Assembly (NCBI GenBank): GCA_002633005.1
Contig: NMRA01001109.1
Location: 1-44,978, forward strand
Direction of reading: 5' to 3'
Source: Phoronis australis
Lineage: Eukaryota > Animalia > Phoronida
Length of the DNA: 44,978 nucleotides
Below the pieces are notes generated by a model. That model was not told where the DNA came from, made no database searches, and saw only the letters and a program-made list of their open reading frames with translations. Shown here piece by piece: positions 15,931 through 44,958 of the stretch (the first letter of the stretch is position 1; each line of letters starts with the position of its first letter). Both the position numbers and the translations under genes were made by a program.

Positions 15931-16330
15931 GTAAGTACTTGAGACCCTTATCCCACGAACGCCCCCATGATCACCTGATAAAGTACTTCAGTTCTGATCA
16001 CAATCTGTTCATACGTTAAAAAGAGGAAAACTTATTCATTAAGATCACCTGAAAAGAATCGAGACCCCCATTCCCTAAGTTTCCTTCTTAACCTGTTTGG
16101 ATGTATCGCGGACTTTTAGCTGCAGAACAAACGCTGTTACAACTCGTCTGTCGCATTTAACGAAAAATCGCGTTTTTTGCTTCGTAGTCAGCTGTCGACT
16201 CGGTTGCGTCATGGATTGTCAGATGCGAAATCGCAGCCATAAACACTCCGCCGGGTCTGTCATAGTTAGGCGGACAGGAGACGCTGGCTAAGCAATTCAA
16301 GTTTTTATCATAAGAATCTTTTACTTTCAG
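15931..16330 (+). other. Probable 5'UTR intron of the desaturase gene
   Basis: Donor CG|GTAAGT at 15931 and pyrimidine-rich acceptor TCTTTTACTTTCAG ending at 16330, 3 nt before the ATG. Pairing the two is an inference. Confidence 0.55.
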
Positions 16331-16333
16331 GTC

Positions 16334-22902: not shown

Positions 22903-23828
22903 TTTAAAAACGAGTACCTTTCTTCGTGTTGAAATGTGCTTAATCTACGCGTAGTTTTGCTTTATCAACGCACTGAATTAGTTCGTAAACGATCACCGCT
23001 CTACTCTTCAACGCGCACATTTGCCGCGACGGAAGATTTTCTACACTGATGGGTGCAAGGCAACGTTTGAAGAATGTTGCAGATTCTTATACTTGATCGC
23101 GTTGATTAAGCACATTTCAGCGCGCAGAAATGTATTCATTTAAAAACCCTTTGGCGTTTCATACCCTTGGGCGAGTGCTTTTACGGACTCGCTGTTCGTT
23201 ATGCTTGAGATCCGGCCTCCCTGTCACTTCCGATCATCTGGGCACTCACTGGATATCTGTCCCGTACATTATTAGTCAACTTACACACAGGTTGACACTG
23301 AGCTCTTTCTAGTTCCGATGTGATTTTTGGAGCGTTTCATTAACCGCCAGTAGACATATCACAACATTAGTAAATAACCAGAACTGAAAATTTCCGCCAA
23401 TTGATAAATGCAATACTTAGGTATTAAATTGTGCCAATTTTGGGCAGGCAATGCTGACCCAATTTGTCACAATTCAGCAGTTTCACAGCTAGATAGTTTG
23501 GGCCGTTCCGTCAACTAAGGCCTGCACAGCGTGCAGTGCTTGAATCTCAATGTCCTTTTAAGTCATTTTGAAAGACAAAAATTAAATCAGTGCACCCAGT
23601 AATTCGTCCATTGAGTTGATTCATTTTCTGGCATTGACGCCAGTATAGCTTCAGTAAACCAGTATGAAACTGCCATAATGGTAAGCTTTGTTTTCTCCTG
23701 AAAATAGACCCACGGGAGCATTTTTGTGGGAGCGCAGTTCCGGACAGATTCTTGGTTGCAACAGCGAAGGCCTATAGGCCTACTTTTTTCACTTTATTGT
23801 CTTTGTCAACTGCGTTAATCTGCTACAG

Positions 23829-24077
23829 TGAACACTTGCTTCGAGAAAGACATCGATTTTGGAGCGAGAAGGCGTTACACCTATTTTGGCGGTTGCCGTA
23901 AGACGTGGGATGACGCCAACAAGTTCTGCAAGGCGCTGGGACAAGGAGGTCAACTGGCAGAACTACGAGTCAGGGAAAGTATTGACAAGGTACAGCAGAT
24001 CGCTGGCACAGCACGGAATGCATGGATCGGACTAAGGGCAGTGTCTTCTTATAATAAGGAATGGAAATGGATAAATG
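23829..24077 (+). CDS. Lectin exon: CTLD1 N-half
   Basis: ctacag|TG; KTWDDANKFC...LAEL...AWIGL...WKWING; G|gtgcgt. Confidence 0.85.
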
Positions 24078-27000: not shown

Positions 27001-28442
27001 AACGACGGGCACCACCAGGAAACGGACATTTCGCGAGACTACGCCCATCTTTATGACCACGACTGCTCCGCTGCTCAAGCTTTTGTCCCCAACAACAGCG
27101 CCGCCTGTGGGTTCATCGGAATCTGCTCATGGGCCAAGTGCAACGTTTGTCTCCACTACGTCGGCAGGTTCGACTGCAGGGAGCGGAACACAATCGGACG
27201 AGATCGAAGAACACTTAGCAGGCGAACGAAAGAACAGGAAAACAAATAGCCATAATATGGGCAAGTAGCCGGGCGCGATAAATAACCTGACATTACTTTG
27301 CCAAATTGCTTGACAACAACGTGATACTTTTTGAAAAACGAATAGTGATAACAGCCGAGCCGATTACGTAATCGTCATTGGTTAATGCAACTGAAAATGG
27401 CAAGTTATTGGGATCAAGATTGTTTAATTCTGACGTGGACATGTAGAATGCAAAGTTTTATTGAACATTACAGGAATGTACGTTGGAATTGGAATAGCTT
27501 GTACAGCCATCCTGTCTGCCATACTGGTAATGTTGGTGTTTATGTGTCGCAGCAAAAGGCGGTAAGTTAACCGAAGTTATGTCTCATCATGTTTTCAACA
27601 GTAGGCTACTTCGACAAACTCTGTAGCATGACTCAGATTCGCGCTCAAATGGGATCGAGACGTTGGGGGCCTGACGCTGAGTTATCCAGTTAAAGAAGGC
27701 TGGTTTTAAAATATCTAAAACTTTACTGGTGTGTCAGGCCTTGTGATCTTTGGTGTTAGGATTGGAATCGACCCTTCATTCTAACCCCGGGTACTTGCAG
27801 TAACATTCTAACCCCCGGTACTTGTTGTAACATTCTAACTCCTGGTACTTGCTGTAACACTCTAACCCCGGGTACTTGTTGTAACATTCTAACCCCGGGT
27901 ACTTGCTGTAACATTCTAACCCGGGGTACTTGTTGTAACATTCTAACTCCTGGTACTTGCTGTAACACTCTAATCCCAGGTACTTGCTGTAACATTAGAA
28001 ATCCAGGTACTTTTTCTAAAAACTGGACACCTTCACCTGACATAATTTGTGTTTCTTCTGTAGGCCAGAAGGAAAAAAATATACCACAGAACAAAAAGCC
28101 AAGGAATGGACTGTTAGTCACGAAAATAAGGTGACATGTCAGAGAGATGGCACCTACATGACGTCAAGCTATATTGGCGCCCAAGAGGCGGATGAATACA
28201 ATTACATCAGTCAGGGAAGTGACACCTTTATGAGGTCAAGCTATATTGGTGCCCCAGAGGCACATGAATACAATTATATCAGTCAGGAAGACAGCCAAAC
28301 ATTTCACATGCGCATGCTCAATAGTAGAGTTGGTGTAAATGGTAGAGCTTCTGACCGTTTGGGCACTGCAACAAGTTGTCATGGTGATTGTGTAGAATAC
28401 CATACACAATTTGTAGAAAATGAATTTTACTGCCCTAAATAA
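23829..28442 (+). CDS. Type I membrane C-type lectin receptor (2 CTLDs + Thr/Ser-rich stalk + TM + Tyr-rich tail); 5' exon(s) not identified
   Basis: Phase-compatible exons 23829-24077, 24304-24462, 24857-25111, 25930-26064, 26889-27260, 27474-27561, 28064-28442. WIGL/WIGA motifs, CTLD cysteines, EPS...ENC...WND in CTLD2. AATAAA at 28489-28494. Confidence 0.85.
24304..24462 (+). CDS. Lectin exon: CTLD1 C-half
   Basis: acag|GT; ...RLCLAV...AKLCYGKQRVACQVP; G|gtgaga. Confidence 0.8.
24857..25111 (+). CDS. Lectin exon: CTLD2 N-half
   Basis: tgtag|TG; SWYDAQSFCSGLGGHL...YWIGA...WLWASG; G|gtatgt. Confidence 0.85.
25930..26064 (+). CDS. Lectin exon: CTLD2 C-half
   Basis: ctag|GT; WNDKEPSSADENCVELLGNGHWNDERCGNKKTFLCQ; G|gtaaaa. 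Confidence 0.9.
26127..26234. repeat. 41-bp tandem repeat containing mariner-like TIR motif TACAGGGTGTCCCA
   Basis: Copies at 26135, 26176 and 26217. Confidence 0.8.
26657..26897. repeat. ~59-bp tandem repeat x4 that includes the lectin stalk-exon acceptor
   Basis: tttggtacacacgtactaggcgttaacatctttcag units. Confidence 0.9.
26889..27260 (+). CDS. Lectin exon: Thr/Ser/Pro-rich mucin-like stalk
   Basis: tttcag|AT; IQTTVSTTTQGMTSKASPQTTAP...; ends at GC donor G|gcaagt. Confidence 0.8.
27474..27561 (+). CDS. Lectin exon: transmembrane helix
   Basis: ttacag|GA; GMYVGIGIACTAILSAILVMLVFMCRSKRR (hydrophobic helix plus basic stop-transfer residues); CG|gtaagt. Confidence 0.85.
27777..28012. repeat. 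27-bp minisatellite (~8.5 copies) in the last lectin intron
   Basis: cattctaaccccgggtacttgttgtaa units. Confidence 0.95.
28064..28442 (+). CDS. Lectin last exon: cytoplasmic tail
   Basis: ttctgtag|G; phase matches the TM exon; duplicated SSYIGAxEAxEYNYISQ motif; TAA stop followed by AATAAA. Confidence 0.8.
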
Positions 28443-29089: not shown

Positions 29090-29216
29090 TTACGACTCTT
29101 GGTCTAGATACTCTCGTAATAACTGTTCCACCTTCTTCCTGTTACTCAGTTTATTAGCCTTTCCCTGATATTTCCCTTTCTTGCCAGCTCCTTTCCCCTC
29201 CAGAAGCTCAGCCACT
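29090..29216 (-). CDS. AARSD1: AARSD1 last coding exon
   Basis: VAELLEGKGAGKKGKYQGKANKLSNRKKVEQLLREYLDQES*; minus-strand AATAAA at 29060-29065. Confidence 0.93.
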
Positions 29217-32200
29217 CTGCAAGAATATCAAACAAAAGAACACCTCATCATTTCACGTTTACTCATATTTTATGACCTTTAGTGGAAGACGCATGAAGGA
29301 GAGTACTTCTCAGCCAATTTAATAACAAAATATTCCTAATTATTTATGAAATTCAACTTAATTTTTATCTGAGTAGCTGAGTTCCTAAAGGAAGTATGAG
29401 TTGATGTGGCACAATCCTCATAATCAATGACAGTTGTTCCACCAATGAATGTCTTCCATTAAGATACGAAGGTCAAGCTGATCCTGTGCTTTGTCACCAA
29501 GGTTACTTCAGAGGTGTTAAAGTACCATCATGACAAATAATTCCACCCTCCGCAAAGTCGTAATTAGCAAAGTTGCATATAAAAGTACTGGATTGGTTAG
29601 GAGAGTCATGTGATCAGATAAACGGTAATAACTAACAACCACATCATATCGGTGGAGTTACCCAAGACAACATGCCTGACAAAGGACACCTAAAATGTGC
29701 ATTAGTTGTACTTTTATGCTACAACTGGTCTGACTTACAGAGAACAACACAACACCCATACCTGCTGCCAACTTTATCGATCACTTCTTGGTTTGAGGCA
29801 AGAATAAAGTTCCCTGCACCATTTTCTTCTCCCACCGACAAGAAGAGTATCACATTCTGGAAATGAACAACACCTAAACAATGAGTTATCATACCACACA
29901 ATTCAGATTGGTTGAATGTACATGTACTTAATGCAAGTCAGTAGACTGTCTCACTACTCAGGACATTATCTCAAGATGAACAGTAAATACTTAAATGGAC
30001 ATGGGCGAAAACACTGTATATTTGACTAGATCCAGTCCCAAGAGGGATTTGAACCCATTGCCTCAGCCATGGCGTAGATTCAGTAAAATGCTTTGTAGGC
30101 AGTGGTAAAAGTTGCTGTGGCAGGTAGCTCAGAATTGAAGTGTTTCTAACTAGTGAGGCCATCTGATTCAATTTTACATGAAATGATGGTTTTTAATGAA
30201 ATCACAAGAACACAGTGAATTCTCGTGTTTTATCCCTCTCGCCAAAGTGAATAACTTTCCTACATAACAATAATCTCCAAAGTGTATTTTTCTCTCAAGC
30301 TGGTTGTCACAATTAAGCCACTCTGGCAGACTCATCAGTCCTCCTACCAAATTTAAAGTGTGCATTGCAGACAAAAATAAAAACATGTATTGCCAAAAAA
30401 AGCAAAGTTAGTTCTAGTCTGTACTCAGAAGATAAAAGTTGCTGCTCACGTTATGTTCAGCCAAGGTCTCCAACAAACCCACGATTAAAGTTTTCAGAAG
30501 ATAAGCGATATCAAGCGTTAGGAATATCTAATAACGGTTATCCCTAGTTCAAAAATTAGGTTTGATGACAAATGCTCATTCATTTCAATGTCTCACACTA
30601 TGGGGATGCCTAAAAACATTGTATTGGTGGCCAATTGCAAACATTTATTAATGAATTGCCTTTTTTATACAAAACTAAGTGTTCAATATTAGAGAAATAT
30701 GTTGAAGCCAAAATCACCAATGTCCCAATGTTAAAAGCCCAAAAAGTTTAATTTGGCTTGAAATTTGATCTCCAAAATATTAGGGACTGCACAAACTGGA
30801 AATTTTAACTATTATTCAAATTAATTAAAAAATCTTCAAATAAATGTAAAAAAATCTTCAAATAAATGTAAAACAAATTTGATCAGTTTGAAACCTCTAA
30901 GTGTACTTACAGGGTCATTAACTTCATTAACAATAATATTCATAAACTCATTATCTCCCTCCTTCCTGTGCAGACATAACAGGCGGCTAACTCCATTAGA
31001 CTTAAACTTTTGTGCTTCAAACACAGCGACATCACGAAGCAGTTGTGAGCATGCCTGAAAGAGAAATGAAAGCACATAGTAACTTTAGTGACCTTGAAAG
31101 GCATTATGGGAAACACATTCTCAGCTGAAGGTGCATACATTTCAAATCTGAATGAATTTTTAGAATGGGCAAACTTAGTGGGCTCAGAGTTCATAATAGA
31201 CACCATGATAATGCCGCCCCTTTAGGCCCATGGGCCTGTATCCGAAATTATGCCTTTTTAGCCAAGTGGTTAGCAAACTTTCACAGTTCTGCACAGACGC
31301 CTATGTTTCTCATATTAGCGCAGTTTCGCACAGACACCCACGGGCCTAATGACAAGGCAATATGGTAATTGCGTCCATCAATGCACAGTGTGCTGTGCCT
31401 AGAGTTCATAGTACATATCTCTGTCAATCAAACACACAAACTGAGTGTGCTGTCCAAGCTTGTGCAATATTATCCAAGCTTGTACAATATTGAACGTTAC
31501 TGACCAAGATTGAGCAATATTGACCAAGCTTGTGCAATATTGTCCACACTTGAGCAGTATTGTCAGAGTTTGTGTAATATTGATCAAGCTTGTGCAATAT
31601 TGTCCAAGCTTGCACAATGCTGTCTGAGCTTAAGCAATATTGTCTAAGCCTAAATGGGATTGCTATCTTCTTAGCTTGATCAATATTGGGATAATTAAGC
31701 ATTTTCCGTTTACTGTCATACCTTTCGACTGACTTGGAACGACTTTTGCATTTTCTCCACCAACATAGGGTGATCTTCAGGCTGATTTCTGAAATGTGAA
31801 CAAAAGTCATACAGATGTTGAATTCAACATGCAGGTAAAAACAGGGTGAGCTCTATAAGCACACTAGTCAGATCTTGTTGGCTTTACTGGCCTAAAAGAA
31901 ACAAAGTGAACATCAGAACTAAATGTATGTATGATTCCTTCTTTATATATGATTCGACTCTTCACAACAGTAATAGACTACATAGAGATGTGGCTCAACA
32001 CTATAACATTTTCAAAAACTTCTCGCTTCACTTTATTGTGATTCAGCATCATAGAAGTTTCCAGATAATACTACTCAGAAAAAATGAAAAGCAAATATGT
32101 TACAACTCATTTCCTAAATAAAGATGTTCCGGTCCCTTGACACACTATTTGAAGAAGAAGAACTGAGACTGTGCTAACATACTTGAGCAAAAAAGTGAGC

Positions 32201-35200
32201 GCCCCCTCCTGGTCACAATACTATGAGGCTGTGATAACATACTTGAGTACAGCAGTGAGCGCCCCCTCCTGGTCACAACACTATGAAACTGTAATAACAT
32301 ACTTGAGTAGAGCAGTGAGCACCCTCTTTTGGTCACAACACTATGAAACTGTGATAACATACCGTAAACTTGTGGGTTAACCCACGCCCATCCCCGACTT
32401 GGTCAATTTTCGGTTTAAGCACCCAATGCGTGGGTAATCGCCCATCCCCTACTTTGTGTTAATTTCCACGCAAGCGTCCACCTCTCGGTTAATCGCTCAT
32501 CCCCAATTTACCGCTTACAGAACTTGCGCTTAACCCTTATCCTGCTGAGCCTCTATTCAGACTACTTTCCCTGTGTGCTGAGCTAAGTAGGTCACCACTA
32601 CTGCTTTACACTAAGCTGTTCTGGAGGTCACCTAGACAAATGACCTAACAACTTTCAATTGGAAATTTGAAGGGGAAATATTAAATTAACAGAAAAGAAG
32701 TCAATACGAAACTTGTGCAGAATTTAATGGAGAATTTCACCATATATAAGTCTTTATCATAGCCTTGGTGAAAGTAAACTGATCCACTGTCATCCTCTCC
32801 CGTATGGCTCCAGCCATATAATGAAACTATGTGTCTACACTTACATAAACCTGCCAATATCTCCCAAACTAGTAATCACAGCCATATGGTTTAAATTGGA
32901 GAACAGTAGAGGAAGTTGTGAAGTATGGAATGCTCATGGTCACATATCTAAACAACATTCCAGGGCTCTTACAATTTCTGAATGAAAATCACAAGTGTCC
33001 TGGGGTGAGTGCACTCTCCTAGCGCAGCCCAGCTGTAACTTATTATAGTCGATTGAGTACACCCAACGCTTTTTAATAGGATAATTGGCATGTCGGCTGA
33101 CCTCGCCTAGCGCAGGATAAGGGTTAAACTCATGCTTTTGTTCACAGCTTTGCATACGATTTTCTCGAACAGTATGTTTTTCAGCCGGCGTTTGTGGAAT
33201 AACTCAAGCGCACAACCACCTTTTTTAAACTTATCAACTGATCTTTTGTTAAATTAATATAGGTCTACTCCGTAGATTTTTATAGAAGTGAAGCTAGTCT
33301 ACTACGAGATTACCCGTACGACGTCCTGGACGTCAACGGCGTAGGTTGTCTAGGTTACAAGTCTTTGAATTATCTAGTCTAAATTTTTTCGTATCAGACA
33401 TTATTTCTGGGATTTTTTCGAGTTCAGTAAATCAAATTTTTTGAGTGTTTGGCGAGAACAGGTGAAACTTCGAAGCATCACCATGTATTTTTAGACGGAG
33501 CACTTGATTTTTTACCCATATTTGAATTGACCAATTAATCTATCCCCCCTCCCATTGTAATTAAACACATAGATCACGTGATTTTGATACATTTATTTCC
33601 TGGGTCAACACAGATTTGAATTGAATAATTATTCACAAATCCCTCTCATTGTAATTGCAAACGGTTTGTGTCGGTCAGGAACAAATAGTTCGTGTTTTTA
33701 AACCAGCGACAGATAAACTAAACAGTGAATCGAAAGTTTATCGGGTTTAATACGCAGATGACATTAACAACAACCAGACGGGACCGGAGGGGTTCCAAAT
33801 AAAAACAGTCATACAAACAACACTAACAGTACAATGGCGCTGGAAACGACATGTAGTCCCATTCACTGATCTGAAACAGTGCTTGCTGATACTGTAAGTG
33901 CCATTTGAGTTTCATAAAGCTCCGTGGAGTGACATTTTGCAGCACACTAACATATTTGAAAACATTGGACTTTTTAACAACGTTCTCGCAAAATCGAAAT
34001 CCTGTTTCTGTTTGAGCCGTGAGAAATTTTGTGGTTGTCTGGTCCTGCTGTTTGACCAAACTTACAAGTTACGCGCTCGAATGAACAACCCGTGAGCTTG
34101 CCCAGTTTGGCTAAAACTTGGACGTAAGTGGCCACTACTTGGGTAATTGCCCACATCCAACTTTTTGCCAATTTTTCGGCTTAAGCGCCCACTGCTTGAG
34201 TAATCGCCCACCCCCTGTCTCAGGGTTTCCCAATTTAAGGGCCAAGGGGTTAACCCGCGAGTTTGAGTAAAGCAGTGAGTGCAATCTCTTGGTCACAATG
34301 CTATGAGACAGTAATAACATACTTGAGTAGAGCAGTGAGCGCCTTCTCCCGGTCACAACACTGCTGTAGGTAGTCCAAGACACGGTTACCAACCAGGAAC
34401 ACTAGATTACATTTGTTCTTCTTTCCTTTCTCGACACTCAGCAGCTTGACAGCCTGGAGTGTAATGGAGGAACACAAACAGTTAGAGGAGAACAATAAAC
34501 TAGATCTGTACACTCAGCAGCTTGACAGCCTGGAGTGTAATGGAGGAACACAAACAGTTAGAGGAGAACAATAAACTAGATCTGTACACTCAGCAGCTTG
34601 ACAGCCTGGAGTGTAATGGAGGAACACAAACAGTTAGAACAATGAACTAGATCTGCATCTAGCTCATTGGTCAGAAACAACAACAAAGAACATCCCACTT
34701 GAGAGCTATATATATTACGAGGCACATCATTGAAACATGAACACTGTTGTCCATGTTTGCACAGGATCTCAATTATCTTTCGTAAAACTGCAGCAGTTTC
34801 AAATCTATTTACATTTAGAATCAGGCAAATATGGGAGTATTGCTGCATGGGTCCGACATTCCTACAGCCTAGTTAACAAGTATTCCAGGTCAAAGTGTAA
34901 TTTTGTAACATTTTCATTCGTTAATACAAGTTCTACGTATGTTGCGTGTTGCAGTGCTGACACAAGAAATTGTAGAGCAGAGACAGAAAGTCATTTGCTA
35001 GTAGTGAAACACTCCATGTCCACCAGATGGCACTAGTGCATTAGAGGTTCTACCTTTACTATCTGAATAATTTCAAAAATCTGTTGACCAAGTCAGGGTA
35101 ACACATGATTTCCCGACAGCATGTATTTACAGGGGAGACAATCATTACCACTGGTGCCACTGAATTTCAGAAAGGTATAACCTGTGTTCACCTGTAGATG

Positions 35201-36471
35201 ACTTAGACTGGAAACGTGTGTTCCACAACACATGTTATCCTCCATCCCGTCTATAGTAACAATGCGTATTGATCCGTCTACATCATCGGGAAGGCCACGC
35301 GTCCGAGCCTAGAGGCAAGCAGTTCATATTGAATCTGACAGTCAATACAACATTACTGTAGTTTTCAAAATGAACTGGTCAGACTTTGGTAGCACCTGAT
35401 CAAACTCTGTCAAATTTTGGAATTTTATGCCACGGGAATTTAGCAAGGACACAAAATGTCTGTCTGCTTACATTCTCGTCGAACTTAAAATGGATATCAA
35501 TTTGTGATAATTGCACCAAGCTAACAGTGTTCAGTTCGAAAGGTAAATTTTGACAAAACTGTGTGAGAACTGAAACGGACGCTTGTTGACGGAAAGTAGC
35601 CTTTAGCCACACTAAGTGTTGTCAAAACAAAGTTCAAAATTGTCCGACCACTTTATTTTGAACACTGCTGTAGGACCATTGCAACACTAGTGCCACCTAC
35701 AGGTTTATCTGCTCACAACATCTCTACCTGTAGATGACTTGTATTTGATACATGCGTTCCACAGCAGAGGTCATCTTCAATACCATCAATAGTCACAATG
35801 CGAACCGATCCCTCAAGATCATCAGGGAGACCACGTGTCCTTGCCTAGAGGCAAGCAGACGACATTTTGAAGCTAAGTAAAAACACTGACCAATGACCAT
35901 AACAACTGTGAACACACTAACCGTCACTACTATGAACAAACTGACCATAACTACAATGAACAAACTGACCATAACTACAATGAACAAACTGACCATAACT
36001 ACAATGAACAAACTGACCATAACTACTGTGAACACACTGGCCATAACTACTGTAAACTTTTTGACAATTTAAGACACAATATGGCTGCCTAGTGAAAGTT
36101 TTATTTTTCAGCAGCATCAAATTAAATATTTATCAAATTAAATATTTAACCCTTTTCCTGTTTTGTATCATCAAACAAAGTGCTAAAAAACTGTGGGCAT
36201 ACAAACCTTTGAAATATGAAAAAATGGCATTTTGCTAATTTTTTGTCTAACATTGGTGAAATTTTACCGTCAATTACTCTAAGCTGAATTTTGTGCCAAA
36301 TCATTTCATAATATTCCTTACAACCATTGGATTCTACTCCCGTTACCAATTTAAGCCATGGGCAAAGAGTACATGCAGCATTTTTGACTTTGGAATTTTA
36401 GGTTTGGTCATTCCCAGTTAAGTCTAAAGCAATATCTTGAGACGCTCGTGGTTTCAGCATTCTTGTTGATA

Positions 36472-36507
<36 letters not shown>

Positions 36508-39500
36508 ACACACACACAGACATACAGACAATCCTATCATAGTAAGGACTATTACGAGACTGATTTTATGAGTGAGAGTAAAAGCCATAAACAGGGTGAA
36601 ACTTTAAACATAAATATTCTCGGATTTTTGTCCAACTTTAAGTGTTCAGTATAACACCTTAAGTACTTTAAGTGTTCAGTATAACACCTAAAGTACTTTA
36701 AGTGTTCAGTATAACACCTAAAGTACTTTAAGTGTTCAGTGTAACACCTAAAGTAGTATTCCGTTCATTCACTGGCAACAGTGTGACACTTCTTTAGACT
36801 AATAAATATGCAACTAGCTGCCGACATCACTCCCAGACACAGGTTAGGACAATCCTATAGGTTGGCACACAACATATTACGGACGACCAACTTTAATGTC
36901 TCTCACAAGGTCAACTTCAACAACTAGCTAACAGTTGCTCAATGCTTTAGTATTCAATACATCAAGAAGTCTTAAGTTTAATAAATACACAATAGACTGA
37001 TTCACTAGTGCAATTAGCTGCAAACTTAGTTTTAATTTGGTGACTTCAGTAAGACCTCAATATTAGAGCATGAAGCTTTTTCTTTTCTCAACACTGGCAG
37101 TCTCAAGTATCTGGACACATCAACAACAACATTCAACGATGTTCATCTAAGTTTGACAAAGTTCTGGCACAGTGATGAATACTACAACTAAAGGAGTTTT
37201 CCAGGAAATTTCTGGTTCAAGATGAATAGAGATAAATCCAACTGATTTTGAAAATTAACAAATTCTGCAACTCTTCTGGCAGAACGGGAAAGTGTATTTA
37301 GATGAGGAGTAACGGGGGAGGGGGAGGGGAGTTAATTTACCTCACTCAAGCGGGGGTCATTTTTATCGTCATACAGCGTTACCGTGACCCCGATGCCAGC
37401 TCTAATTTTGTCATTGGTAGTGTCCTCAATGTACCGCATCTCCTCCAGTGTCAGGGTGGGGGCATCCAACTCTATGAATGATGTCTTTTCACCAAGCCAC
37501 CTGCAATGGAAAATAACTTTAGTGACGAGCCTACCTATGTCTGCCAAAAAGTACAACAGTACTCTCAATCAATTGAAAGTTTTCTAAGAAGACTAGAAGT
37601 ATCCTTTCATATTGTTTCTATAGCATAAATCCCAGTATTCTCTAGAACTGAAGAAAATTGAAATCCATAATATTTGATAGTTTCTGTCAATGCTGCTGTT
37701 TGCTATACCGCAATGTGTCACTGAGTTCTCTAAGTTTACTTGTACACTTGTTGAATTCAAAGACCACCATACAGCAGATACACAAACTGTATGGGTTTCA
37801 CAAACACAGAGAAACTTGGGACTGGAGTTGCAACCTTCCTGCTTGAGAAGAAAAGTGACACACCTATACAATACCAAGTAAGACAGACCTTTCCATAACA
37901 ACACCCCTGAAACTGGACTCAACCATTGTCACCAATAACAACGACTGCTCGCCAAATGAGGGCATGATCATAGTACAACAACAGCAATACTAGATTTGAA
38001 AACTTGTAACTATGAAGAGTTTGTATGTTACCGTATTCGCTGTAATAACCGCCCATGCCCCTATAAGCGCCCCCCCACTTAGCTAAAATAAGTGCCCAGT
38101 CCACGAACATGTATGAGCGAAAAATGCCTTACCTACAGTCCTAAAATTCTACAGTAACGTCTTCAATTTATCGATAATATCCGACAGTCCTGAAAAAATC
38201 ATTGTGCGCAGAATTTGTAGACCACGATCCTCGCCGCTGTCGGTATTTAGCCGTGACTATACACTTCAAACTTTCGCCATGCCTCAAAACGAACACAAAA
38301 GTTTTGCTGATCTTGCGAGGACCAATGGTCTGCCAGTGGCCTTTCAGAACAGACGTAGTGTACTTGTCTACGGGACTGCTTTGTAGATATTTCCCGGTTT
38401 CAACAGGAATCCAAATTTCTTTGTACACGTGAAAACCGCGAATCGAAGACTACTAAACAGCTTGGCCAGTGTTAAAAGCATGTGGCCAGGAAGCGCGCGC
38501 TACATACATGAACCTGTCATCAAAGACATTACTCAGGAACTATCCATTCATGAAACGAGTAGCATAGCGTCGGCAAGAAATGAATATTGGCACTAATTTC
38601 CAACAGTTTCTAATACTATAAACAAGAGCAACGCGGAGGATTGTAATACGCAAAAAAACAAGACTGCCACTAGGAGGCGCCACAAAAGTCGAAGTCGTCA
38701 GAAAATCATCATCAACCGTCCTCTTTATAGTAAGAACATACATGCCAATTTTCGCAATCATGCTTACAACGGTTTGGTTGAAAGAGGGGCGAATGCTAAA
38801 AAACAGACTCGAAAACAGTAAAAATGGCCACTAGGTGAATCCATCCGAAAACGGGAGGATACCGTCGTCTCACTAATATGTGCCTATATACCAAATTTTG
38901 TGAAAATATGTCGAGGACCTTTGAAGACACAGAGGTAAACGTAAAAAACTAAAATTGCCACTAGGGGGCACATCGGTAGTCAGATCCGTCCAAAAGTTCG
39001 CTCATGCCGTACCATCCATGAAAGGAACATAATATGTGCAAAATTTCATGAACATACGTCAATCGTTTTGGAGATAGAGCAGCGGATGCCGCACGCCGGA
39101 CGGACAGAGATGACGGCATGATGCGTCCACATATAAATATGTGGGTGCATAAAAATGTTTGCGTTACTTTTAAGATGAATTGTTTGATTAACCATAATTG
39201 GTGTTTTTAAGCCAAATATCCGATAAAATGACCATTGACAGTGAATGCTTACACACCCTTACATCGAAAAATAACTGTCAGATAGTAACGTACGCATCCA
39301 GCCACAGGGCGACTAATATGGGCCTTACCAAAACAAATGTCGAACATTTTTAGCACATGAGAGATGAGACCGGCAAGTGCTGAATGAAACACGCTCTGGT
39401 TTAGGCCTACTGCTTGTGCAAATTTCTTTAGGTACAATGCACATCTAGCTAGCTCGTTAGATTGCGTGGCTTTGGCCAAAAGACGGTATTTGCTCTGGCA

Positions 39501-42500
39501 AATGAATTCTGGTGACACACACGCGCTCGCTTACTCACAAATGCAGACGAACTTCAAAACAAACGTCACGTGACAACAACATGTGAGTTCGTCCAGACAT
39601 TTTTCTCATGTTGACGATCATACATGTAGATGGCATGATTTGTACTTAAACCTGTCATTAATCCCGACCCCACGGGAACTTAAAAATCTTAGGGACGCTA
39701 CTTGGAAAACTTAAGGAGGATTTCAGGTAATTTGTTTGAGTCGAAACTGTATTTTATTCAAGCATTGAAGTCGCCATATCGACGATTGCTAGGCAGTCAT
39801 TCGGCGAGTTTTCGCCGTGGGATTTCAGCACAAAACGATCGTAATCTATTAGCAGCAAAGTTTGATAGCAATGCACCACGGTTTTGTAAAAGTCTCATTG
39901 ATTACAGATACGTCACAGGGCTTAAACATGATGAATCTTAGCTTCCGATTTCACTCGTTTTGGAGACCGGGTTTCAACGGCCTTGGGTTATAGTAAGCGC
40001 CCCCCCTGAAACGAACTTTTCTAAGCGCCCTAGGCGGTTATTACGGTGAATACGATAAGTTTTGGAAGGAATGTATTGAATTAGTGCCAAAAGTACAAAG
40101 AGGAACCCCCAACTGCCATTTCGGTGGTCCATGTCTCCAGTTCAGTGGTGCATGTCTCCAGTTCAGTGGTGCATGCATCCAGTTCAGTGGTGCATGCCTC
40201 CAGTTCAGAGGTGCATGCTTCCAGTTCAGTGGTGCATGCCTCCAGTTCAGTGGTGCATGCCTCCAGTTCAGTGGACAATGTTTCCAGTTAAGTAGTGCAT
40301 ACCTCCAGTTCAGTGGTCCATGCCTCCAGTTCAGTGGTCCATGTTTCCAGTTAAGTAGTGCATACCTCCAGTTCAGTGGTCCATTCCTCCAGTTCAGTGT
40401 TCCATACCTCCAGTTCAGTGTTCCATACCTCCAGTTCAGTGGACCAAATATCACTAAATGTTAAAACAATTTTGTGCTCAAACACCTACCATGACGTTGT
40501 ATCATATCCATATTTTTCATTGATGACAGCAGTGATCAGATGCTGACCTGAAAATAGTCATACATTACAATCAGTACTTGGTACCAAGTTTTTATTCCAA
40601 AAAGTTAAACAAAAGGGAAAATGTTACATTTTTGGAGGCCATTATTGTCAATTTGACCTACTTTACAAAAGATTTTTAAACCTTTTTAATTGATTTCTAT
40701 ATAAAATAAAATCAATGCAAAAGTCAACCTCAAACCTGCAGGACATGTATGACAATTGAAAGTAAGTGGAGTTCCTTGCTTTCCATTTCTTATCAGGCCA
40801 AGACAACTACAGATTTCCAGTCCCAGTCCCACTAAATAACAATTTGCATCAGTAATGACAGACAGGTAATCCATTCAATATCATAGTGACTCAGGCCTTC
40901 AGAGGCACTTGCTTGCTCACAGCCATACACTTACAATTAAAAGAATTGTTAAAGAATTGTTAATATTACTTTTAGTAACTTCCGGTAAAATGGCGCCAGC
41001 ACAAAACGTGCGTTTTGCTAGTTTGTAAATTTTCAAAGTTATCTTCACCTTGCAGCCTAGAGGCAAGCAGACGACATTTTGAAGCTAAGTAAAAACACTG
41101 ACCAATGACCATAACAACTGTGAACACACTGACCATAACTACTATGAACACACTGACCATAACTACTATGAACAAACTGACCATGACTACTATGAACAAA
41201 CTGACCATAACTGATGTGAACTCTTGACAATTTAAGACACAATGTAGACCGGCAGCCCAGAGCACTTAGCATAGATGAACGAGGTACCATTGGGTTTTCA
41301 GTGCAGCACGATTGTTGGTTTTAAATCAGTTTAAGCAGATACCTTGAAAATCTAACTGTCTCAAAAATGGTAAACCGTGGTTGAGATTTTTGAGGGTTTC
41401 TGCCAGGGACAATCCAGAGTGTATTTTGTCTGCCGGTCATAGGGTATTTAGTGACCTGTGACATGTATTGAATCTCATGTAATTGTTTTTGGGGTATCTC
41501 GAATGTACATGTATGTGCTAGCTCATTTTAGGGGGGTCCTTTTTTGGTTTCTGCCGGACCCATTCCAGAGTGCAATTTGTCTGTCGTCTGTCATGGGTCA
41601 TTTGGTGTTCAGTGCGGTACTATTGTTCGTTTAAAATCAGTTTTGGCCGGTACCTCGAAAANNNNNNNNNNNNNNNNNNNNNNNNNNNNNNNNNNNNNNN
41701 NNNNNNNNNNNNNNNNNNNNNNNNNNNNNNNNNNNNNNNNNNNNNNNNNNNNNNNNNNNNNNNNNNNNNNNNNNNNNNNNNNNNNNNNNNNNNNNNNNNN
41801 NNNNNNNNNNNNNNNNNNNNNNNNNNNNNNNNNNNNNNNNNNNNNNNNNNNNNNNNNNNNNNNNNNNNNNNNNNNNNNNNNNNNNNNNNNNNNNNNNNNN
41901 NNNNNNNNNNNNNNNNNNNNNNNNNNNNNNNNNNNNNNNNNNNNNNNNNNNNNNNNNNNNNNNNNNNNNNNNNNNNNNNNNNNNNNNNNNNNNNNNNNNN
42001 NNNNNNNNNNNNNNNNNNNNNNNNNNNNNNNNNNNNNNNNNNNNNNNNNNNNNNNNNNNNNNNNNNNNNNNNNNNNNNNNNNNNNNNNNNNNNNNNNNNN
42101 NNNNNNNNNNNNNNNNNNNNNNNCCAGTTCAGAGGTGCATGCTTCCAGTTCAGTGGTGCATGCCTCCAGTTCAGTGGTGCATGCCTCCAGTTCAGTGGTG
42201 CATGTTTCGAATTAAGTAGTGCATACCTCCAGTTCAGTGGTCCATACCTCCAGTTCAGTGGTCCATACCTCCAGTTCAGTGGACCAAATATCACTAAATG
42301 TTAAAACAATTTTGTGTTCAAACACCTACCATGACGTTGTATCATATCCATATTTTTCATTGATGACAGCAGTGATCAGATGCTGACCTGAAAATAGTCA
42401 TACATTACAATCAGTACTTGGTACCAAGTTTTTATTCTAAAAAGTTAAATAAAAGGGGAAATGTTACATTTTTGGAGGCCATTTTTGTCAATTTGACCTA

Positions 42501-44958
42501 CTTTACAAAAGATTTTTAAAACCTTTTCAATTGATTTCTATATAAAATAAAATCAATGAAAAAGTCAACCTCAAACCTGCAGGACATGTATGACAATTGA
42601 AAGTAAGTGGAGTTCCTTGCTTTCCAGTTCTTATCAGGCCAAGACAACTACAGATTTCCAGTCCGAGTCCCACTAAATAACAATTTGCATCAGTAATGAC
42701 AGACAGGTAATCCAATCAATACCACAGTGACTCAGGCCTTCAGAGGCACTTGCTTCCTCACAGCCATACACTTACAATTAAAAGAATTGTTAATATTACT
42801 TTTAGTAATCCTCAAATATCAATATCTATCTCTGCTTAGAACTCTTTTGGGATAGAAGTAAGATTTCTCATTCTCAGGTTTGCAGTCCTTCTTGAAATCA
42901 ACCATAATTTAGGTTAAAATGTTTTTCAGTAAATCTTATTAAAACTTTTGGAAGTACATCTGATATAAACTTGTTGCAAAATACATCATAAAACATATGT
43001 TTGTATGTACTCTCAACAGATGGCACTTTATATGCATGTCAACGGATGGTAGTTTGTATGCATGTCAACAGATGCACAGTGAACAGATGGCATTACCTGA
43101 GTGTTGTTGCATGTGATCAAATCTTCTCAACCAATCCAGCTTGATGTCAACATCAGTGTCTGCATCTAATGGGCTCGGCACAAAGTGGCGGACATCTTGA
43201 CCACACTTCTCCACTCTCAGAACATCTATTCCATTTATCTGATATTCAAAACATAGAAAATTGAGAAAATGACAATCAAAGTACTGAACTGCCATGGACG
43301 GGATATCTTAACTAAGAAGAGATACAGACATCATGGGATTGGGACATAACTTACTGCCTTGTCAATAGATGGTGCTCACACTTTTATTTCCCAGTAGGTG
43401 TCAGGGGTAACCTTTTTGCAAAACTCAATTTCTCACTTGAGACACAACATCATCAAGACATTGTCCATTGAAACTTGACAGTGAGTGGAGAGCTGGTTTG
43501 AAAGTCATTGAGTGCAAGAATACCTTCACATGTTTAACACACTTATTCTGTACCATCAACACATCTGCTCTTTCTAAATGTCAACTGTAGTATTCCTATT
43601 ACTTAGTCTTCCTTGAAAGGGTTGTTATCTCGCCTGTGTTGGACTAGCAAGAGCCAGGAATGAACACTTGAGGAACACAAGAACACTGAATCTGTTCACA
43701 CAAACAGAGGCTCATCATGTTTTGTTTTGTTGTTCTGTTTGATTGACATGACCCCTCAGTTCAGAACAGTGATGGTGTGATTTGTTTACTGTATAGTGTG
43801 GAACTTTCTAGAAGACTCTAGCATGACAGTGATTAATGCAGTCTAGAATATTCTAGAGACTAGGACATGTTTTTAGAATGATTGGGTAGATTCCAGAAAG
43901 GTCTAGAAAGTGCTTTAATTAGTGAAAAGTTCTAGAACATTGCATTAGTCTATAAATACACAAGCACGGGTTTGTATTAGTCAGTAAAGCAGTTAACAGT
44001 TAAACAGTTGAGAGAATTACAGCTGATTTGTAGTTAAGAGAAATCAGCAGTTACAGCAAGAGTCAATAACGTTTTGTTTGAGTAGGCTTGTGAACATTCA
44101 ATCGAGGTTAATAAAGTAATTAACTCGAACAAGTCTTTAGTCTTTCGTCACACTGAAAGCTATCAGCACCGGTTAGTAACCACACACGGGGAAAAGTGTG
44201 AAAATACCGCAAGAACGGTAAGTCGTAGCAAGAACGGTAAGTCGTAGCAAGAACGGTAAGTCGTAGCAAGAACGGTAAGTCGTAGCAAGAAACAGGACTT
44301 CACAATGATGATTGTAATTGAAAAGACCTCTCCACATACCAAATTTCAAACATATCCATCAAGGGACCCCGAAGATACGGCGCTAAAACTCAGTTATTTG
44401 GAGACCAGTTCGCAGAAAAACTCTATTCACTTGAGAATGGCAAGAACTACAGAACACCAAAAGAGACATTTGAATGATATATCCACCGAAAGAAAAATCA
44501 GAAAGATAAAATCCCACCAGAAAAAGCTGAGCTATGGTTGCGAGTTCGCAAACAAAAAAGAAGAAAATGGCTGTCACAGTCATTTTATAAGAATTTCATA
44601 CAAAAAACAAAAGGCTTCGAGCCATTCACGAAAGACATGTTGACAGTAAACTTGGCATTGACATCATAAGAACTGCGAACTGTAGCACTAGAACAAAAAA
44701 CAAACAAAAACAAAACAAATCAAACAAATTTTATGACAATGCAACATACTTCAAGAAATTTTATTTCATCAAGTCACAAGAGTGAAATTGTTAATTCAAA
44801 CACACAATTACCTTTCCCCTGTCATCAGGTTGCCCACCCCCCTCCGGGAATAGAATGGTATCTTCCAAGATGACATTAAACCCATTCAGTGTGGCCTTCT
44901 TACCATTGGAAACTTGTTTAATGGATGCTGGTTCACAGGAGACGACCTTTGACCTGAA
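29090..44958 (-). CDS. AARSD1: Alanyl-tRNA editing protein AARSD1 (AlaXp); first exon lies beyond the window end
   Basis: Exons 44812-44958, 43097-43238, 42330-42387 (identical copy 40490-40547), 37341-37500, 35728-35844 or 35192-35308, 34323-34453, 31722-31788, 30911-31054, 29762-29856 and 29090-29216 splice in frame via GT-AG. Recognisable motifs: LEDTILFPEGGGQPDDRG, RRFDHMQQHSGQHLITA, CCGTHV, HRKEGDNEFMNII, LEGKGAGKKG. Confidence 0.95.
29762..29856 (-). CDS. AARSD1: AARSD1 exon 10
   Basis: NVILFLSVGEENGAGNFILASNQEVIDKVGS-R; |gtatgg. Confidence 0.9.
30030..30165 (-). mobile_element. Possible tRNA-derived SINE remnant
   Basis: Minus-strand B box GGGTTCAAATCCC with a weak A-box-like tggcctcactagttaga about 100 nt upstream; no cloverleaf. 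Confidence 0.3.
30911..31054 (-). CDS. AARSD1: AARSD1 exon 9
   Basis: ACSQLLRDVAVFEAQKFKSNGVSRLLCLHRKEGDNEFMNIIVNEVNDP; |gtaagt. Confidence 0.93.
31450..31650. repeat. 20-bp minisatellite (tgtccaagcttgtgcaatat)n
   Basis: About 10 degenerate copies. Confidence 0.85.
31722..31788 (-). CDS. AARSD1: AARSD1 exon 8
   Basis: NQPEDHPMLVEKMQKSFQVSRK; tttcag| ... |gtatga; phase fits both neighbours. Confidence 0.85.
32165..32361. repeat. 57-bp tandem repeat copied from the AARSD1 exon 7 3' end and donor
   Basis: taacatacttgagtagagcagtgagcgcc...ggtcacaacact units; one more copy at 34262-34322 abuts exon 7. Confidence 0.9.
32362..34264. mobile_element. Tc1/mariner-superfamily (pogo/Tc2-like) non-autonomous element in AARSD1 intron 7
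   Basis: TA|CCGTAAACTTGTGGGTTAACCC ... GGGTTAACCCGCGAGTTT (right tip deleted); subterminal taatcgccca repeats at both ends. Confidence 0.65.
34323..34453 (-). CDS. AARSD1: AARSD1 exon 7
   Basis: AVKLLSVEKGKKNKCNLVFLVGNRVLDYLQQCCDREKALTALL-K; |gtatgt. Confidence 0.93.
34435..34660. repeat. 76-bp tandem triplication spanning the AARSD1 exon 7 acceptor
   Basis: cactcagcagcttgacagcctggagtgtaatgg... at 34435, 34511 and 34587. Confidence 0.95.
35024..35699 (-). promoter_or_regulatory. Putative docking site (35024-35039) and selector sequences (35149-35160, 35684-35699) for exon 6a/6b choice
   Basis: In the pre-mRNA, GCACUAGUGCCAUCUG pairs with UAGGUGGCACUAGUGU (16 bp including G-U) or with GUGGCACCAGUG (11/12). 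Each selector lies about 30 nt after its exon's donor. Confidence 0.6.
35192..35308 (-). CDS. AARSD1: AARSD1 exon 6b (alternative editing-site exon)
   Basis: ARTRGLPDDVDGSIRIVTIDGMEDNMCCGTHVSSLSHLQ; 117 nt, phase 0/0; ctctag| ... |gtgaac. Confidence 0.9.
35728..35844 (-). CDS. AARSD1: AARSD1 exon 6a (alternative editing-site exon)
   Basis: ARTRGLPDDLEGSVRIVTIDGIEDDLCCGTHVSNTSHLQ; 117 nt, phase 0/0; ctctag| ... |gtagag. Confidence 0.85.
35885..36057. repeat. 24-bp minisatellite (ctgaccataactacaatgaacaaa)n; second array at ~41097-41222
   Basis: Direct tandem copies. Confidence 0.9.
36635..36755. repeat. 30-bp minisatellite x4
   Basis: ctttaagtgttcagtataacacctaaagta units. Confidence 0.9.
37341..37500 (-). 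CDS. AARSD1: AARSD1 exon 5
   Basis: WLGEKTSFIELDAPTLTLEEMRYIEDTTNDKIRAGIGVTVTLYDDKNDPRLSE; ttgcag| ... |gtaaat. Confidence 0.93.
38187..38449 (-). pseudogene. Degenerate HIRAN-like coding fragment within the TIR element
   Basis: SSIRGFHVYKEIWIP...DKY...PRKIS...LRHG...CIVT, then a frameshift to GLQI...MIFSG. Matches from memory the RGxHVYKxxW...PRxIS...CxVT...GLEIP pattern; no search was run. Confidence 0.55.
38620..39155 (+). mobile_element. HINE/DINE-1-like (Helentron-associated) non-autonomous element nested in the TIR element
   Basis: Starts aacaagag; two caaattt(t/c)(g/a)tgaa core repeats; GGAC microsatellite; terminal stem-loop atgcgtccacatat-aa-atatgtgggtgcat followed by AAAAA. Confidence 0.6.
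40124..40443. repeat. 21-bp minisatellite (ctccagttcagtggtgcatgc)n; also 42124-42283
   Basis: About 15 tandem copies. Confidence 0.95.
40490..40547 (-). CDS. AARSD1: AARSD1 exon 4 (copy B, identical)
   Basis: Same 58 nt and splice sites as 42330-42387, inside a duplicated segment on the other side of the N-gap. Confidence 0.7.
42330..42387 (-). CDS. AARSD1: AARSD1 exon 4 (copy A)
   Basis: GQHLITAVINEKYGYDTTSW, 58 nt; ttttcag| ... |gtaggt. Confidence 0.85.
43097..43238 (-). CDS. AARSD1: AARSD1 exon 3
   Basis: INGIDVLRVEK...LDWLRRFDHMQQHS-G; |gtaatg. Confidence 0.95.
43776..44152 (+). mobile_element. Solo-LTR-like element with heat-shock elements
   Basis: TGTGA...TCACA termini, clustered TTCTAGAA-type motifs, TATAAATA at 43951, AATAAA at 44110; no convincing TSD, boundaries uncertain. 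Confidence 0.55.
44209..44290. repeat. 19-bp minisatellite (gcaagaacggtaagtcgta)x4+
   Basis: Direct tandem copies. Confidence 0.9.
44812..44958 (-). CDS. AARSD1: AARSD1 exon 2
   Basis: FRSKVVSCEPASIKQVSNGKKATLNGFNVILEDTILFPEGGGQPDDRGK; ttacag| ... |gtaatt. Confidence 0.95.

Follow-up and report, generated by a model that had tools for sequence, protein, structure and literature searches.

Two alternatively used editing-site exons in a phoronid AARSD1 gene and a predicted RNA-pairing switch that may govern their choice

Introduction

What stops the upstream member of a pair of alternative exons from joining the downstream one? The docker-selector model explains just one of the two intron choices (PMC6071210). 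A compact two-exon test of the question, spanning less than 1 kb, is found in the phoronid Phoronis australis (assembly GCA_002633005.1, contig NMRA01001109.1), of which we analyzed positions 1 to 44,978 of the forward strand; this whole stretch of 44,978 nt is called the window below. The gene concerned is AARSD1, whose product, AlaX, is a trans-editing enzyme. According to one report, AlaX trans-editors guard against serine misincorporation and can also hydrolyze correctly charged Ser-tRNA(Ser) (PMC11260482), so that their activity must be balanced. Here, the exon carrying the CxxxH motif, one half of the zinc active site, occurs in two natural versions (6a and 6b), a ready-made experiment on the specificity residues beside the zinc cysteine, and a predicted hairpin masking the donor of the first version offers a concrete, mutable answer to the question that the docking/selector model raises. 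The original prediction knew of no description of such AARSD1 isoforms, and we likewise found no report of them in the literature.

Results

Named AARSD1 proteins mapped in order onto exons 2-11 of the gene by tblastn (numbering as in the original prediction, exon 1 lying outside the window), with 52-55% identity over ~395 residues to named fish, mollusc, and sea-spider AARSD1. The translation contains editing and C-Ala domains, the latter with the Gly-rich motif GKGAGK, and no aminoacylation domain; its zinc motifs are HMQQH in exon 3 and CCGTH in both 6a and 6b. Between exon 2 and the stop, a frame of 395 codons stays open with either 6a alone or 6b alone, the introns are GT-AG throughout, and junctions 4-5 and 7-8 were also seen in RNA reads. 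The full-length tblastn match, the domains, and the zinc motifs confirm the earlier assignment of the gene to AARSD1/AlaXp. Its features are as follows.

29090..44958, minus strand: AARSD1, exons 2-11 (tblastn with named AARSD1 proteins and RNA junctions)
44958-44812, minus strand: exon 2
43238-43097, minus strand: exon 3, carrying HMQQH
42387-42330, minus strand: exon 4, with an identical second copy at 40546-40489
37341..37500, minus strand: exon 5, constitutive, upstream of the 6a/6b pair (tblastn, boundaries, RNA junctions)
35728..35844, minus strand: exon 6a, upstream copy, with the D-L-C-C form of the CxxxH motif (sequence, Pfam, RNA junctions)
35845..35858, minus strand: acceptor of 6a (last 14 intron nt), identical to that of 6b (35309-35322)
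35192..35308, minus strand: exon 6b, downstream copy, with the N-M-C-C form, as in vertebrates (sequence, Pfam, RNA junctions)
34323..34453, minus strand: exon 7, constitutive, downstream of the 6a/6b pair (tblastn, boundaries, RNA junctions)
31788-31722, minus strand: exon 8
31054-30911, minus strand: exon 9
29856-29762, minus strand: exon 10
29216-29090, minus strand: exon 11

Beside an N gap, the same gene holds two pairs of duplicated blocks, namely, 40284-40978 versus 42124-42808 (93%) and 35843-36000 versus 41055-41212 (96%).

Exons 6a and 6b were predicted as two 117-nt, phase 0/0 exons preceded by AG and followed by GT, and they are found as such on the minus strand, the plus-strand translations of this region containing stops. 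The hand counts made at that stage were reproduced exactly, as were the translations: 31 of 39 residues are identical (8 differ), 17 of the 31 codons for identical residues differ synonymously, and there are zero indels or stops. At the nucleotide level, 88/117 positions are identical. By the Nei-Gojobori method, 19.5 differences fall on 28.2 synonymous sites against 9.5 on 88.8 nonsynonymous sites (Fisher p 5.6e-9), giving a dN of ~0.115 and a dS of ~1.9, the latter a rough value since it is near saturation. As originally proposed, these rates indicate an old tandem duplication with both copies under purifying selection. The Pfam tRNA_SAD profile matches both exons (33.5 and 24.7 bits; cut-off, 24), and all four clear read variants inside them are synonymous; a variant at 35842, probably due to misplaced 6b reads, was excluded from this count. 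For the 39-residue exon, a tree (70 rows, 8 discarded for duplication or shortness) gave no resolved branching and is silent on 6a/6b sisterhood.

Exon use was read from raw reads placed on the window, from three RNA-seq runs (X2, X3, and X4) that are samples of one study and of which 18-19% each was read; a further run, X1, consisting of contigs, covered neither exon 6. Junctions were listed at three or more reads per run. Reads joining 5-6a numbered 8/7/7 in X2/X3/X4 (total, 22), those joining 6a-7 9/2/8 (19), those joining 5-6b 7/7/5 (19), and those joining 6b-7 15/3/8 (26), with overhangs reaching 53 to 74 nt and counts unchanged at 88% and 95% likeness. These four junctions were the ones listed; neither 6a-6b nor 5-7 reached three reads in any of the three runs. 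Up to two 6a-6b reads per run would go unlisted, which bounds double inclusion at ~24% in the worst case. The junction reads of 6a total 41 and those of 6b 45, a 6a share of 48% (95% interval, 37-59%), and the ratio is homogeneous among the runs (p 0.72). Exons 6a and 6b are thus mutually exclusive, at about 50:50, in RNA, with low-level double inclusion compatible with the data. The suggestion that they are mutually exclusive exons has therefore stood, each being joined to 5 and 7 by 19 to 26 reads per junction, and the junction count proposed to check it gave, in the three runs, use of both copies and no sign of constant co-inclusion.

Since double inclusion stays in frame and the introns are all GT-AG, an active block on 6a-6b joining is needed. 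Nonsense-mediated decay was ruled out as the cause of exclusivity (117 nt keeps the frame with both exons or neither), as was U12 splice-site incompatibility (all sites are GT-AG). A passive intron-size block is countered by the 6a-6b intron itself, 419 nt long with branch-like motifs 36 to 74 nt from its 3' end.

Behind the two exons lie elements arranged as in docking/selector systems.

35684..35699, minus strand: candidate selector a (core +32 to +43 = 35696-35685), an inverted repeat of the dock forming a 16-bp duplex with it (-27.6 kcal/mol)
35149..35160, minus strand: candidate selector b, at offset +32 to +43 from the end of 6b, matching the core of selector a in 11/12 positions
35024..35039, minus strand: candidate docking site in the 6b-7 intron, complementary to the selectors; its plus strand perfectly matches a CTCF-like consensus

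The same 12-nt motif thus recurs behind 6a and 6b, at precisely +32 to +43 in each case. The same-offset match of 11/12 stands against a background of 6/29 and 2/12 in the flanks and was reached in 7 of 100,000 shuffles. With one mismatch at most, the 12-mer has three matches in the 45 kb, where 0.27 are expected: selector a, selector b, and, in inverted orientation, the dock; this triple was found in 0/100 shuffles, a post hoc figure since the pattern was picked by eye. The only reverse complement of the motif in the window is the dock downstream of 6b. One selector per exon, both complementary to one dock, points to a selector/docking layout.

The two selectors are unequal partners. The duplex of selector a with the downstream intron (-39.3 kcal/mol) was matched in 0/300 shuffles, and its computed probability of pairing with the dock swings with the window ends (0.01, 0.66, and 0.85). 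The selector b:dock duplex is predicted at -19.8 kcal/mol, with a probability of 0.00 to 0.01 in unconstrained folds; this pairing showed no significance against shuffles (66/300), and an equally good partner for selector b lies in intron 5 (-21.9 kcal/mol). At each end of the dock helix, a read variant (35024 and 35039) replaces a G-U pair with selector a by an A-U pair; the two leave the selector a energy unchanged and weaken selector b from -19.8 to -17.4 kcal/mol. These two within-species, one-sided, pair-keeping transitions are weak evidence for the pairing.

The pairing computation also places a hairpin (H1) over the 6a donor.

35726..35738, minus strand: predicted 5' arm of H1, the last 11 nt of 6a plus the donor GT
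35692..35704, minus strand: predicted 3' arm of H1, spanning +24 to +36 of the intron and sharing nucleotides with selector a (z -3.6; 1/200 shuffles)

With 13 contiguous pairs (-21.5 kcal/mol), this 3' arm is the top partner of the donor region within 2.9 kb of pre-mRNA, and H1 has a predicted probability of 0.98 in transcripts ending before the dock. The longest donor-to-intron helix is 13 bp at 6a versus 4 to 7 bp at nine other donors (6/20,000 shuffles), and locally, opening the donor costs 13.4 kcal/mol at 6a versus 2.3 to 6.5 kcal/mol at those nine. Across six folding windows, the H1 and selector a:dock states are separated by 0.5 to 4.6 kcal/mol in ensemble energy, sometimes in favor of one and sometimes of the other. 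Docking of selector a is predicted to leave the 6a donor in a second hairpin, within exon 6a, where opening it still costs 6.7 or 10.5 kcal/mol, according to the window used, so that its release by docking would be at best partial. The last four codons are identical in 6a and 6b, an identity that H1 does not require and that is given no weight as evidence. The 14-nt acceptor shared by the two exons would pair with the 6a donor region at -14.4 kcal/mol, barely better than the next sites.

Discussion

The either/or splicing of 6a and 6b, at about 50:50, is in our judgment likely to be enforced by a switch between competing RNA pairings predicted from these computations. H1, formed during transcription, would bury the 6a donor, so that 6a could not join 6b; with H1 in place, the default route would be 5-6b-7. 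Once transcribed, the dock could capture selector a through 16 bp, breaking H1 and looping out 6b to give 5-6a-7, and selector b would compete with selector a for the dock. The predicted energies of the H1 and docked states lie near each other, which accords with the even split. In terms of the docker-selector model, H1 would supply the missing second intron choice. The products would be two trans-editing AlaX isoforms differing at eight residues.

Do these isoforms differ in function? The clearest candidate is exon position 25, two residues before the zinc cysteine, where 6a has Asp and 6b has Asn. The NMCC form had been given as that of vertebrate AARSD1, and rightly so: all 118 vertebrate sequences have Asn here (116 NMCC and 2 NTCC) and none has Asp. 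In 139 diverse ungapped homologues, the residue is Asn in 119 and Asp in 11, with Leu at the next position in 43, and position 25 is nearly invariant in an alignment of 29 proteins; the DLCC of 6a therefore lies within natural AARSD1 variation, its Asp rare but natural. The original prediction likened this DLCC to AlaRS and ThrRS editing motifs, a likeness that concerns the bacterial enzymes. The residue two before the Cys is acidic in both of these; it matters in ThrRS and has little effect in Escherichia coli AlaRS. Two archaeal AlaRS alignments have Gln where 6a has Asp. A literature search on the role of this residue returned nothing usable. In an AlphaFold model of a fish homologue, exon positions 23-26 lie on the strand that runs into the CxxxH loop. 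The AlaRS/ThrRS editing dichotomy, Tyr versus a small aliphatic residue 9 to 11 positions before the Cys (PMC12003907), is not recreated by the pair: exon positions 16-18 are Ile, Val, and Thr in both, so that 6a and 6b are the same at the hydrophobic-shell position where that work sets Tyr against Val, Ile, Leu, or Thr. The published Zn/ROS switch residue, matched by counting, is Val in both exons.

Taken together, the residues give weak support to functional divergence. Both isoforms are likely, by homology to human AlaX (PMC11260482), to be active Ser-tRNA deacylases, and any difference in activity is probably modest; that it would be measurable is a possibility we lean against. We put slightly better than even chances on the isoforms being equivalent, exclusivity being a by-product of copying one stem-loop arm, an origin proposed in PMC6071210, and both exons being kept only because each provides some half of the enzyme. 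Even for equivalent copies, one would expect purifying selection on both, because each supplies about half of the mRNA. Residues C27, G29, T30, and H31 of the zinc motif and V17 are common to 6a and 6b; seven of the eight 6a-specific residues and seven of the eight 6b-specific ones occur elsewhere among the homologues, in 3-86% of them (the 6b exception being D11, 0/139), and all eight 6a-specific residues do occur (in 9 to 111 of 139); and the 6a/6b ratio is even, with no difference among the three runs. What equivalence leaves awkward is position 25, Asn in all the vertebrates and in 119/139 diverse homologues and nearly invariant across the 29 proteins, yet Asp in 6a, a charge change two residues before a Cys that human AlaX requires (C209A is defective; PMC11260482). 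This account concerns purpose and is compatible with selector/dock splicing as the mechanism. At the other extreme, we consider it improbable that the lineage tunes proofreading by splicing: a riboswitch-like element, in which a selector masks its own 5' splice site, would choose the editing exon, and Asp or Asn beside the zinc Cys would yield AlaX enzymes and mixed dimers differing in substrate range, Zn inhibition, or oxidation sensitivity.

As to mechanism, exclusivity might instead stem from too small an effective spacing of the 6a donor and the 6b branch point, or from repressor proteins, rather than from selector/dock pairing. Steric hindrance is known for two-exon clusters (PMC6071210), and the 6a-6b intron contains an inserted palindromic element that folds back on itself.

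35354..35672, no strand: element of ~318 nt whose terminal inverted repeats (31 nt, 81%) have decayed

The element appears, by inference, to be MITE-like; reads from other loci match it at one end only (loose ends at 35354 and 35388). Its terminal stem is predicted with probabilities of mostly 0.7 to 0.96, and without it the intron shrinks to ~101 nt. Even so, the donor and the nearest branch-like motif would still be ~65 nt apart (101 less 36-37), which exceeds the minimum donor-branch distance of roughly 50 nt. Folding of the whole 6a-6b intron does not surpass that of shuffled sequences (z -1.4), and the same-offset motif and the 13-bp donor hairpin are left unexplained, making this account unlikely.

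Less probable still, and by a good way, is that the dock and selector a are complementary solely as oppositely oriented CTCF-type DNA sites, acting via polymerase pausing or not at all. A CTCF-like consensus is matched with 0 mismatches by the dock and 1 by selector a, and its matches are enriched in the window (7 versus 0.23 expected); CTCF-mediated pausing that affects exon inclusion is mentioned in PMC7797038. Selector b, however, keeps the 12-mer at the same offset yet is absent from the seven CTCF-like matches, the remaining five sites lack the 12-mer, and the donor-masking hairpin is unexplained. That the second exon 6 is a dead copy or an artefact of assembly or of haplotypes, as the duplicated blocks beside an N gap (93% and 96%) might suggest, is refuted by junction reads splicing 6a and 6b each to 5 and 7 in all three RNA samples and is at odds with their identity of only 75%, with synonymous sites near saturation.

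The proposed switch recalls several known systems. The layout behind 6a and 6b agrees with the published one-arm duplication model (PMC6071210), and tandem homologous exons with a selector behind each and one downstream dock are found, as here, in Drosophila 14-3-3zeta, Mhc, MRP1, and Dscam exons 4 and 9 (PMC6071210, PMC4691838); in AARSD1, by contrast, the upstream selector overlaps the predicted hairpin that masks the donor of its own exon, and the pairing of selector b is without folding support. Human ATE1, also an enzyme acting on aminoacyl-tRNA, has two homologous mutually exclusive exons, 7a and 7b, in which competing pairings hide a splice site and disruption leads to double inclusion (PMC7797038). 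There, one shared element hides one of two 3' splice sites, as shown by compensatory mutation (PMC7797038), whereas the predicted AARSD1 mask lies on a 5' splice site.

Among editing enzymes, the AlaRS and ThrRS editing domains, AlaX-M, and AlaX-S (PDB 3KEW, 2E1B, 2ZZE, 3WQY, and 1NYQ) share by sequence the HxxxH/CxGxH fold family seen here. With eukaryotic AlaX/AARSD1, for example human AlaX (PMC11260482), the gene shares a collinear order of exons over the entire protein after exon 1, HxxxH, CxxxH, and GKGAGK; the difference is that the CxxxH exon is present here in two copies, spliced either/or. Not one of the 292 homologues retrieved has two CxxxH motifs of this kind. A homologue search with exon 5 alone gave no matches, a full-length profile search was dominated by fish, with no close invertebrate relative having annotated isoforms, and cluster look-ups of 20 proteins yielded no annotated isoforms of this kind in close invertebrate relatives. 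A metagenome scan returned five loci, none a close relative: L003 and L004 were rejected as AARSD1, having a short motif match only and frames unlike the gene, and L001 and L002 are single-copy, intron-poor, distant AARSD1 homologues.

Structure and expression of the AARSD1 exon pair

AARSD1 almost certainly holds a real, expressed, and mutually exclusive pair of active-site exons, the upstream and downstream copies (6a and 6b) of the exon carrying the CxxxH half of the zinc editing site. The original prediction of two 117-nt exons was borne out on the minus strand, with the translations first proposed:

Exon 6a, 35844-35728, minus strand: 117 nt, phase 0/0, AG before, GT after
Exon 6b, 35308-35192, minus strand: 117 nt, phase 0/0, AG before, GT after

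The earlier counts of 31/39 identical residues and 17 synonymous codon differences were both reproduced, and the dN/dS calculation proposed with them yielded 19.5 synonymous differences in 28.2 sites (dS ~1.9, nearly saturated) against 9.5 replacement differences in 88.8 sites (dN ~0.115, unsaturated; Fisher p 5.6e-9). The structure is intron-rich and the GC content 40%, which, together with the distance from vertebrate sequences, suggests an invertebrate animal. Named AARSD1 proteins match exons 2 to 11 in order (44958-29090). With either copy, the reading frame runs uninterrupted through 395 codons to the stop, and the product shows 52-55% identity to AARSD1 of fish, mollusc, and sea spider. 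Including neither copy or both likewise leaves the frame open, so that decay cannot hide double-inclusion transcripts.

To count junctions, 18-19% of each of three raw RNA-seq runs (X2, X3, and X4; same species label, one study) was mapped on 34250-37560, joints being listed from 3 reads with 2 starts per run. The resulting table had four rows only, joining both copies to the neighboring exons 5 and 7 as mutually exclusive use implies, with longest overhangs of 53-74 nt; their counts were unchanged when mapping was repeated at 95% likeness.

Reads per splice joint in runs X2, X3, and X4
5-6a: 8, 7, 7
5-6b: 7, 7, 5
6a-7: 9, 2, 8
6b-7: 15, 3, 8
4-5 (95% likeness): 8, 13, 23
7-8 (95% likeness): 15, 14, 23

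Neither a 6a-6b nor a 5-7 joint attained this listing threshold in X2, X3, or X4, as judged from the first mapping only, the 95%-likeness table having omitted 17 weaker rows. As many as 2 reads in each run may go unlisted, which bounds double inclusion at 24% in the worst case. Of the 86 junction reads, 41 involve exon 6a (48%, interval 37-59%), a share that does not differ between the runs (p 0.72). Clear read variants are synonymous in 4/4 cases within exons 6a and 6b versus 2/4 within exons 5 and 7, a fifth exon-6 variant (35842) being excluded from the count as probably due to mis-mapped reads. At position 35723 (+5 of the 6a donor), all six X2 reads running from exon 6a into the intron bear a differing base; this is an allele, possibly linked to retention.

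Consequences for the protein

Eight exon positions (10, 11, 14, 22, 25, 26, 34, and 35) distinguish the isoforms, which share the zinc ligands C27 and H31. As originally noted, vertebrate AARSD1 has N two residues before the cysteine (position 25; 118/118 proteins). Among 139 ungapped diverse homologues (of 164, 25 being left out for gaps), 119 have N and 11 have D at position 25, and 85 have M and 43 have L at position 26; 6b therefore follows the common pattern, and 6a bears a natural variant that is less frequent. Solved relatives have N (3KEW) or Q (2ZZE and 3WQY) at position 25, and the Pfam tRNA_SAD model scores 6a (33.5 bits) above 6b (24.7 bits). The closest 6a homologue, protein P0001 (82%), shares L10, E11, and D25 with 6a and M26 and L35 with 6b; from its sequence, it could represent a relative's 6a-type exon.

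Human AlaX depends on its cysteine (C209A), and excess Zn inhibits it (PMC11260482). The single-residue Zn/ROS switch reported in PMC12003907 is located 9-11 positions N-terminal to the cysteine. Since 6a and 6b are identical in that stretch, nothing apart from the N/D change points to a functional difference, possible though one is, and we consider a measurable enzymatic difference between the isoforms somewhat doubtful. Purifying selection on both copies is no proof of such a difference, since each supplies half of the mRNA and the human enzyme dimerizes, according to a section heading of PMC11260482.

A candidate RNA switch behind mutual exclusion

All splice sites are GT-AG, and the 6a-6b intron spans 419 nt. 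Exclusivity through RNA structure is suggested by three features of the sequence. The 6a and 6b donors are each followed, at +32 to +43, by a 12-nt motif (candidate selectors a and b; 11/12 identical) between flanks matching at 6/29 (+3 to +31) and 2/12 (+44 to +55) positions (7/100,000 shuffles, this and the shuffle values below being post hoc because the features were picked out by looking). With at most one mismatch, it occurs three times in 45 kb, as both selectors and one inverted copy:

Candidate dock, 35027-35038: inverted motif copy, downstream of 6b

The predicted selector a:dock duplex has 16 bp (-27.6 kcal/mol), and that of selector b 14 bp with one mismatch and one bulge (-19.8 kcal/mol). 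Furthermore, the last 11 nt of 6a and the donor GT are predicted to pair with intron +24 to +36 (13 contiguous bases), a 3' arm overlapping selector a. This hairpin has a probability of 0.98 in every simulated transcript ending before the dock (z -3.6 against shuffles), and opening the 6a donor would cost 13.4 kcal/mol versus 2.3-6.5 at the nine other donors of the gene. The corresponding 6b region lacks such a hairpin (z 0.09).

We favor, with moderate confidence, an RNA-structure switch with a donor-masking selector as the most likely mechanism. The 6a donor would be masked by the hairpin as soon as it is transcribed, blocking 6a-6b joining and favoring 5-6b-7; the dock, transcribed later, could displace the hairpin via selector a, and their pairing would loop out 6b and allow 5-6a-7. 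The hairpin and docked states lie 0.5-4.6 kcal/mol apart, in either direction, across six windows, which is compatible with the even 6a/6b split. Two read variants at the dock-helix ends keep the selector a pairing and weaken that of selector b. Against the switch, no unconstrained fold populates selector b:dock, a pairing that also does not differ significantly from shuffles, the 6a donor is predicted to re-pair within exon 6a once selector a is docked (opening cost 6.7-10.5 kcal/mol), and state probabilities vary strongly with window ends.

The complementarity might alternatively reflect CTCF-like sites, as the dock and selector a fit a CTCF-like consensus, matches to which are enriched in the window. 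Exclusivity might also stem from the make-up of the 6a-6b intron, which consists of ~101 nt plus a 318-nt palindromic element.

The proposed donor-masking switch has relatives in known systems. Insects are established to have tandemly duplicated, mutually exclusive exons that work with docking sites downstream (PMC6071210 and PMC4691838), and one origin proposed for such exons is the copying of a single stem-loop arm (PMC6071210). In human ATE1, competing pairings hide 3' splice sites (PMC7797038), whereas the mask predicted in AARSD1 lies on the 6a donor. No report of mutually exclusive AARSD1 exons was found in a search covering mostly accessible main texts of subscription-free papers; the event could already stand in genome-wide MXE catalogues or in the species' database annotation. 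One paper, otherwise unrelated to this exon pair, lists a splicing event in human AARSD1 that depends on the exon junction complex.

Other features of the locus

An assembly artefact as the source of the pair is excluded, despite true 93-96%-identical duplicated blocks near an N gap (41662-42123). Two copies of exon 4 with the same sequence stand in blocks of 93% identity (40284-40978 and 42124-42808). Between these blocks, a copy of the region around the 6a acceptor (41055-41212, 96% identical to 35843-36000) has no exon behind it. The arrangement reflects a partial tandem duplication or else a haplotype left uncollapsed. The joint rows shown include no use of this extra acceptor, and 4-5 joints were seen.

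At 34429-34656, a 76-nt unit (the branch region and acceptor of exon 7 together with the first 20 bases of the exon) stands in three tandem copies, of which the last acceptor alone was seen in joints. Relative to two of the copies, reads from the intron have a 5-nt gap, suggesting that the sequenced animals carry fewer. The segment 38620-39160 is a high-copy repeat with >100-fold read depth, hundreds of loose ends, and two CTCF-like motifs. The intronic segment 32530-33130, transcribed on both strands and with an 81-nt skip (32828-32910) recurring in 3/3 runs, is probably a repeat expressed from other loci.

On the plus strand, an apparently intronless 460-codon ORF (16292-17674), whose exact sequence was absent from the protein collection searched, resembles, judged by eye, a front-end fatty-acid desaturase, with the HPGG motif of cytochrome b5 and histidine boxes. 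A multi-exon gene (~23800-27570, plus strand) converges on the AARSD1 3' end and appears, also by eye, to encode C-type-lectin-like pieces, a Thr-rich stalk, and a hydrophobic segment.
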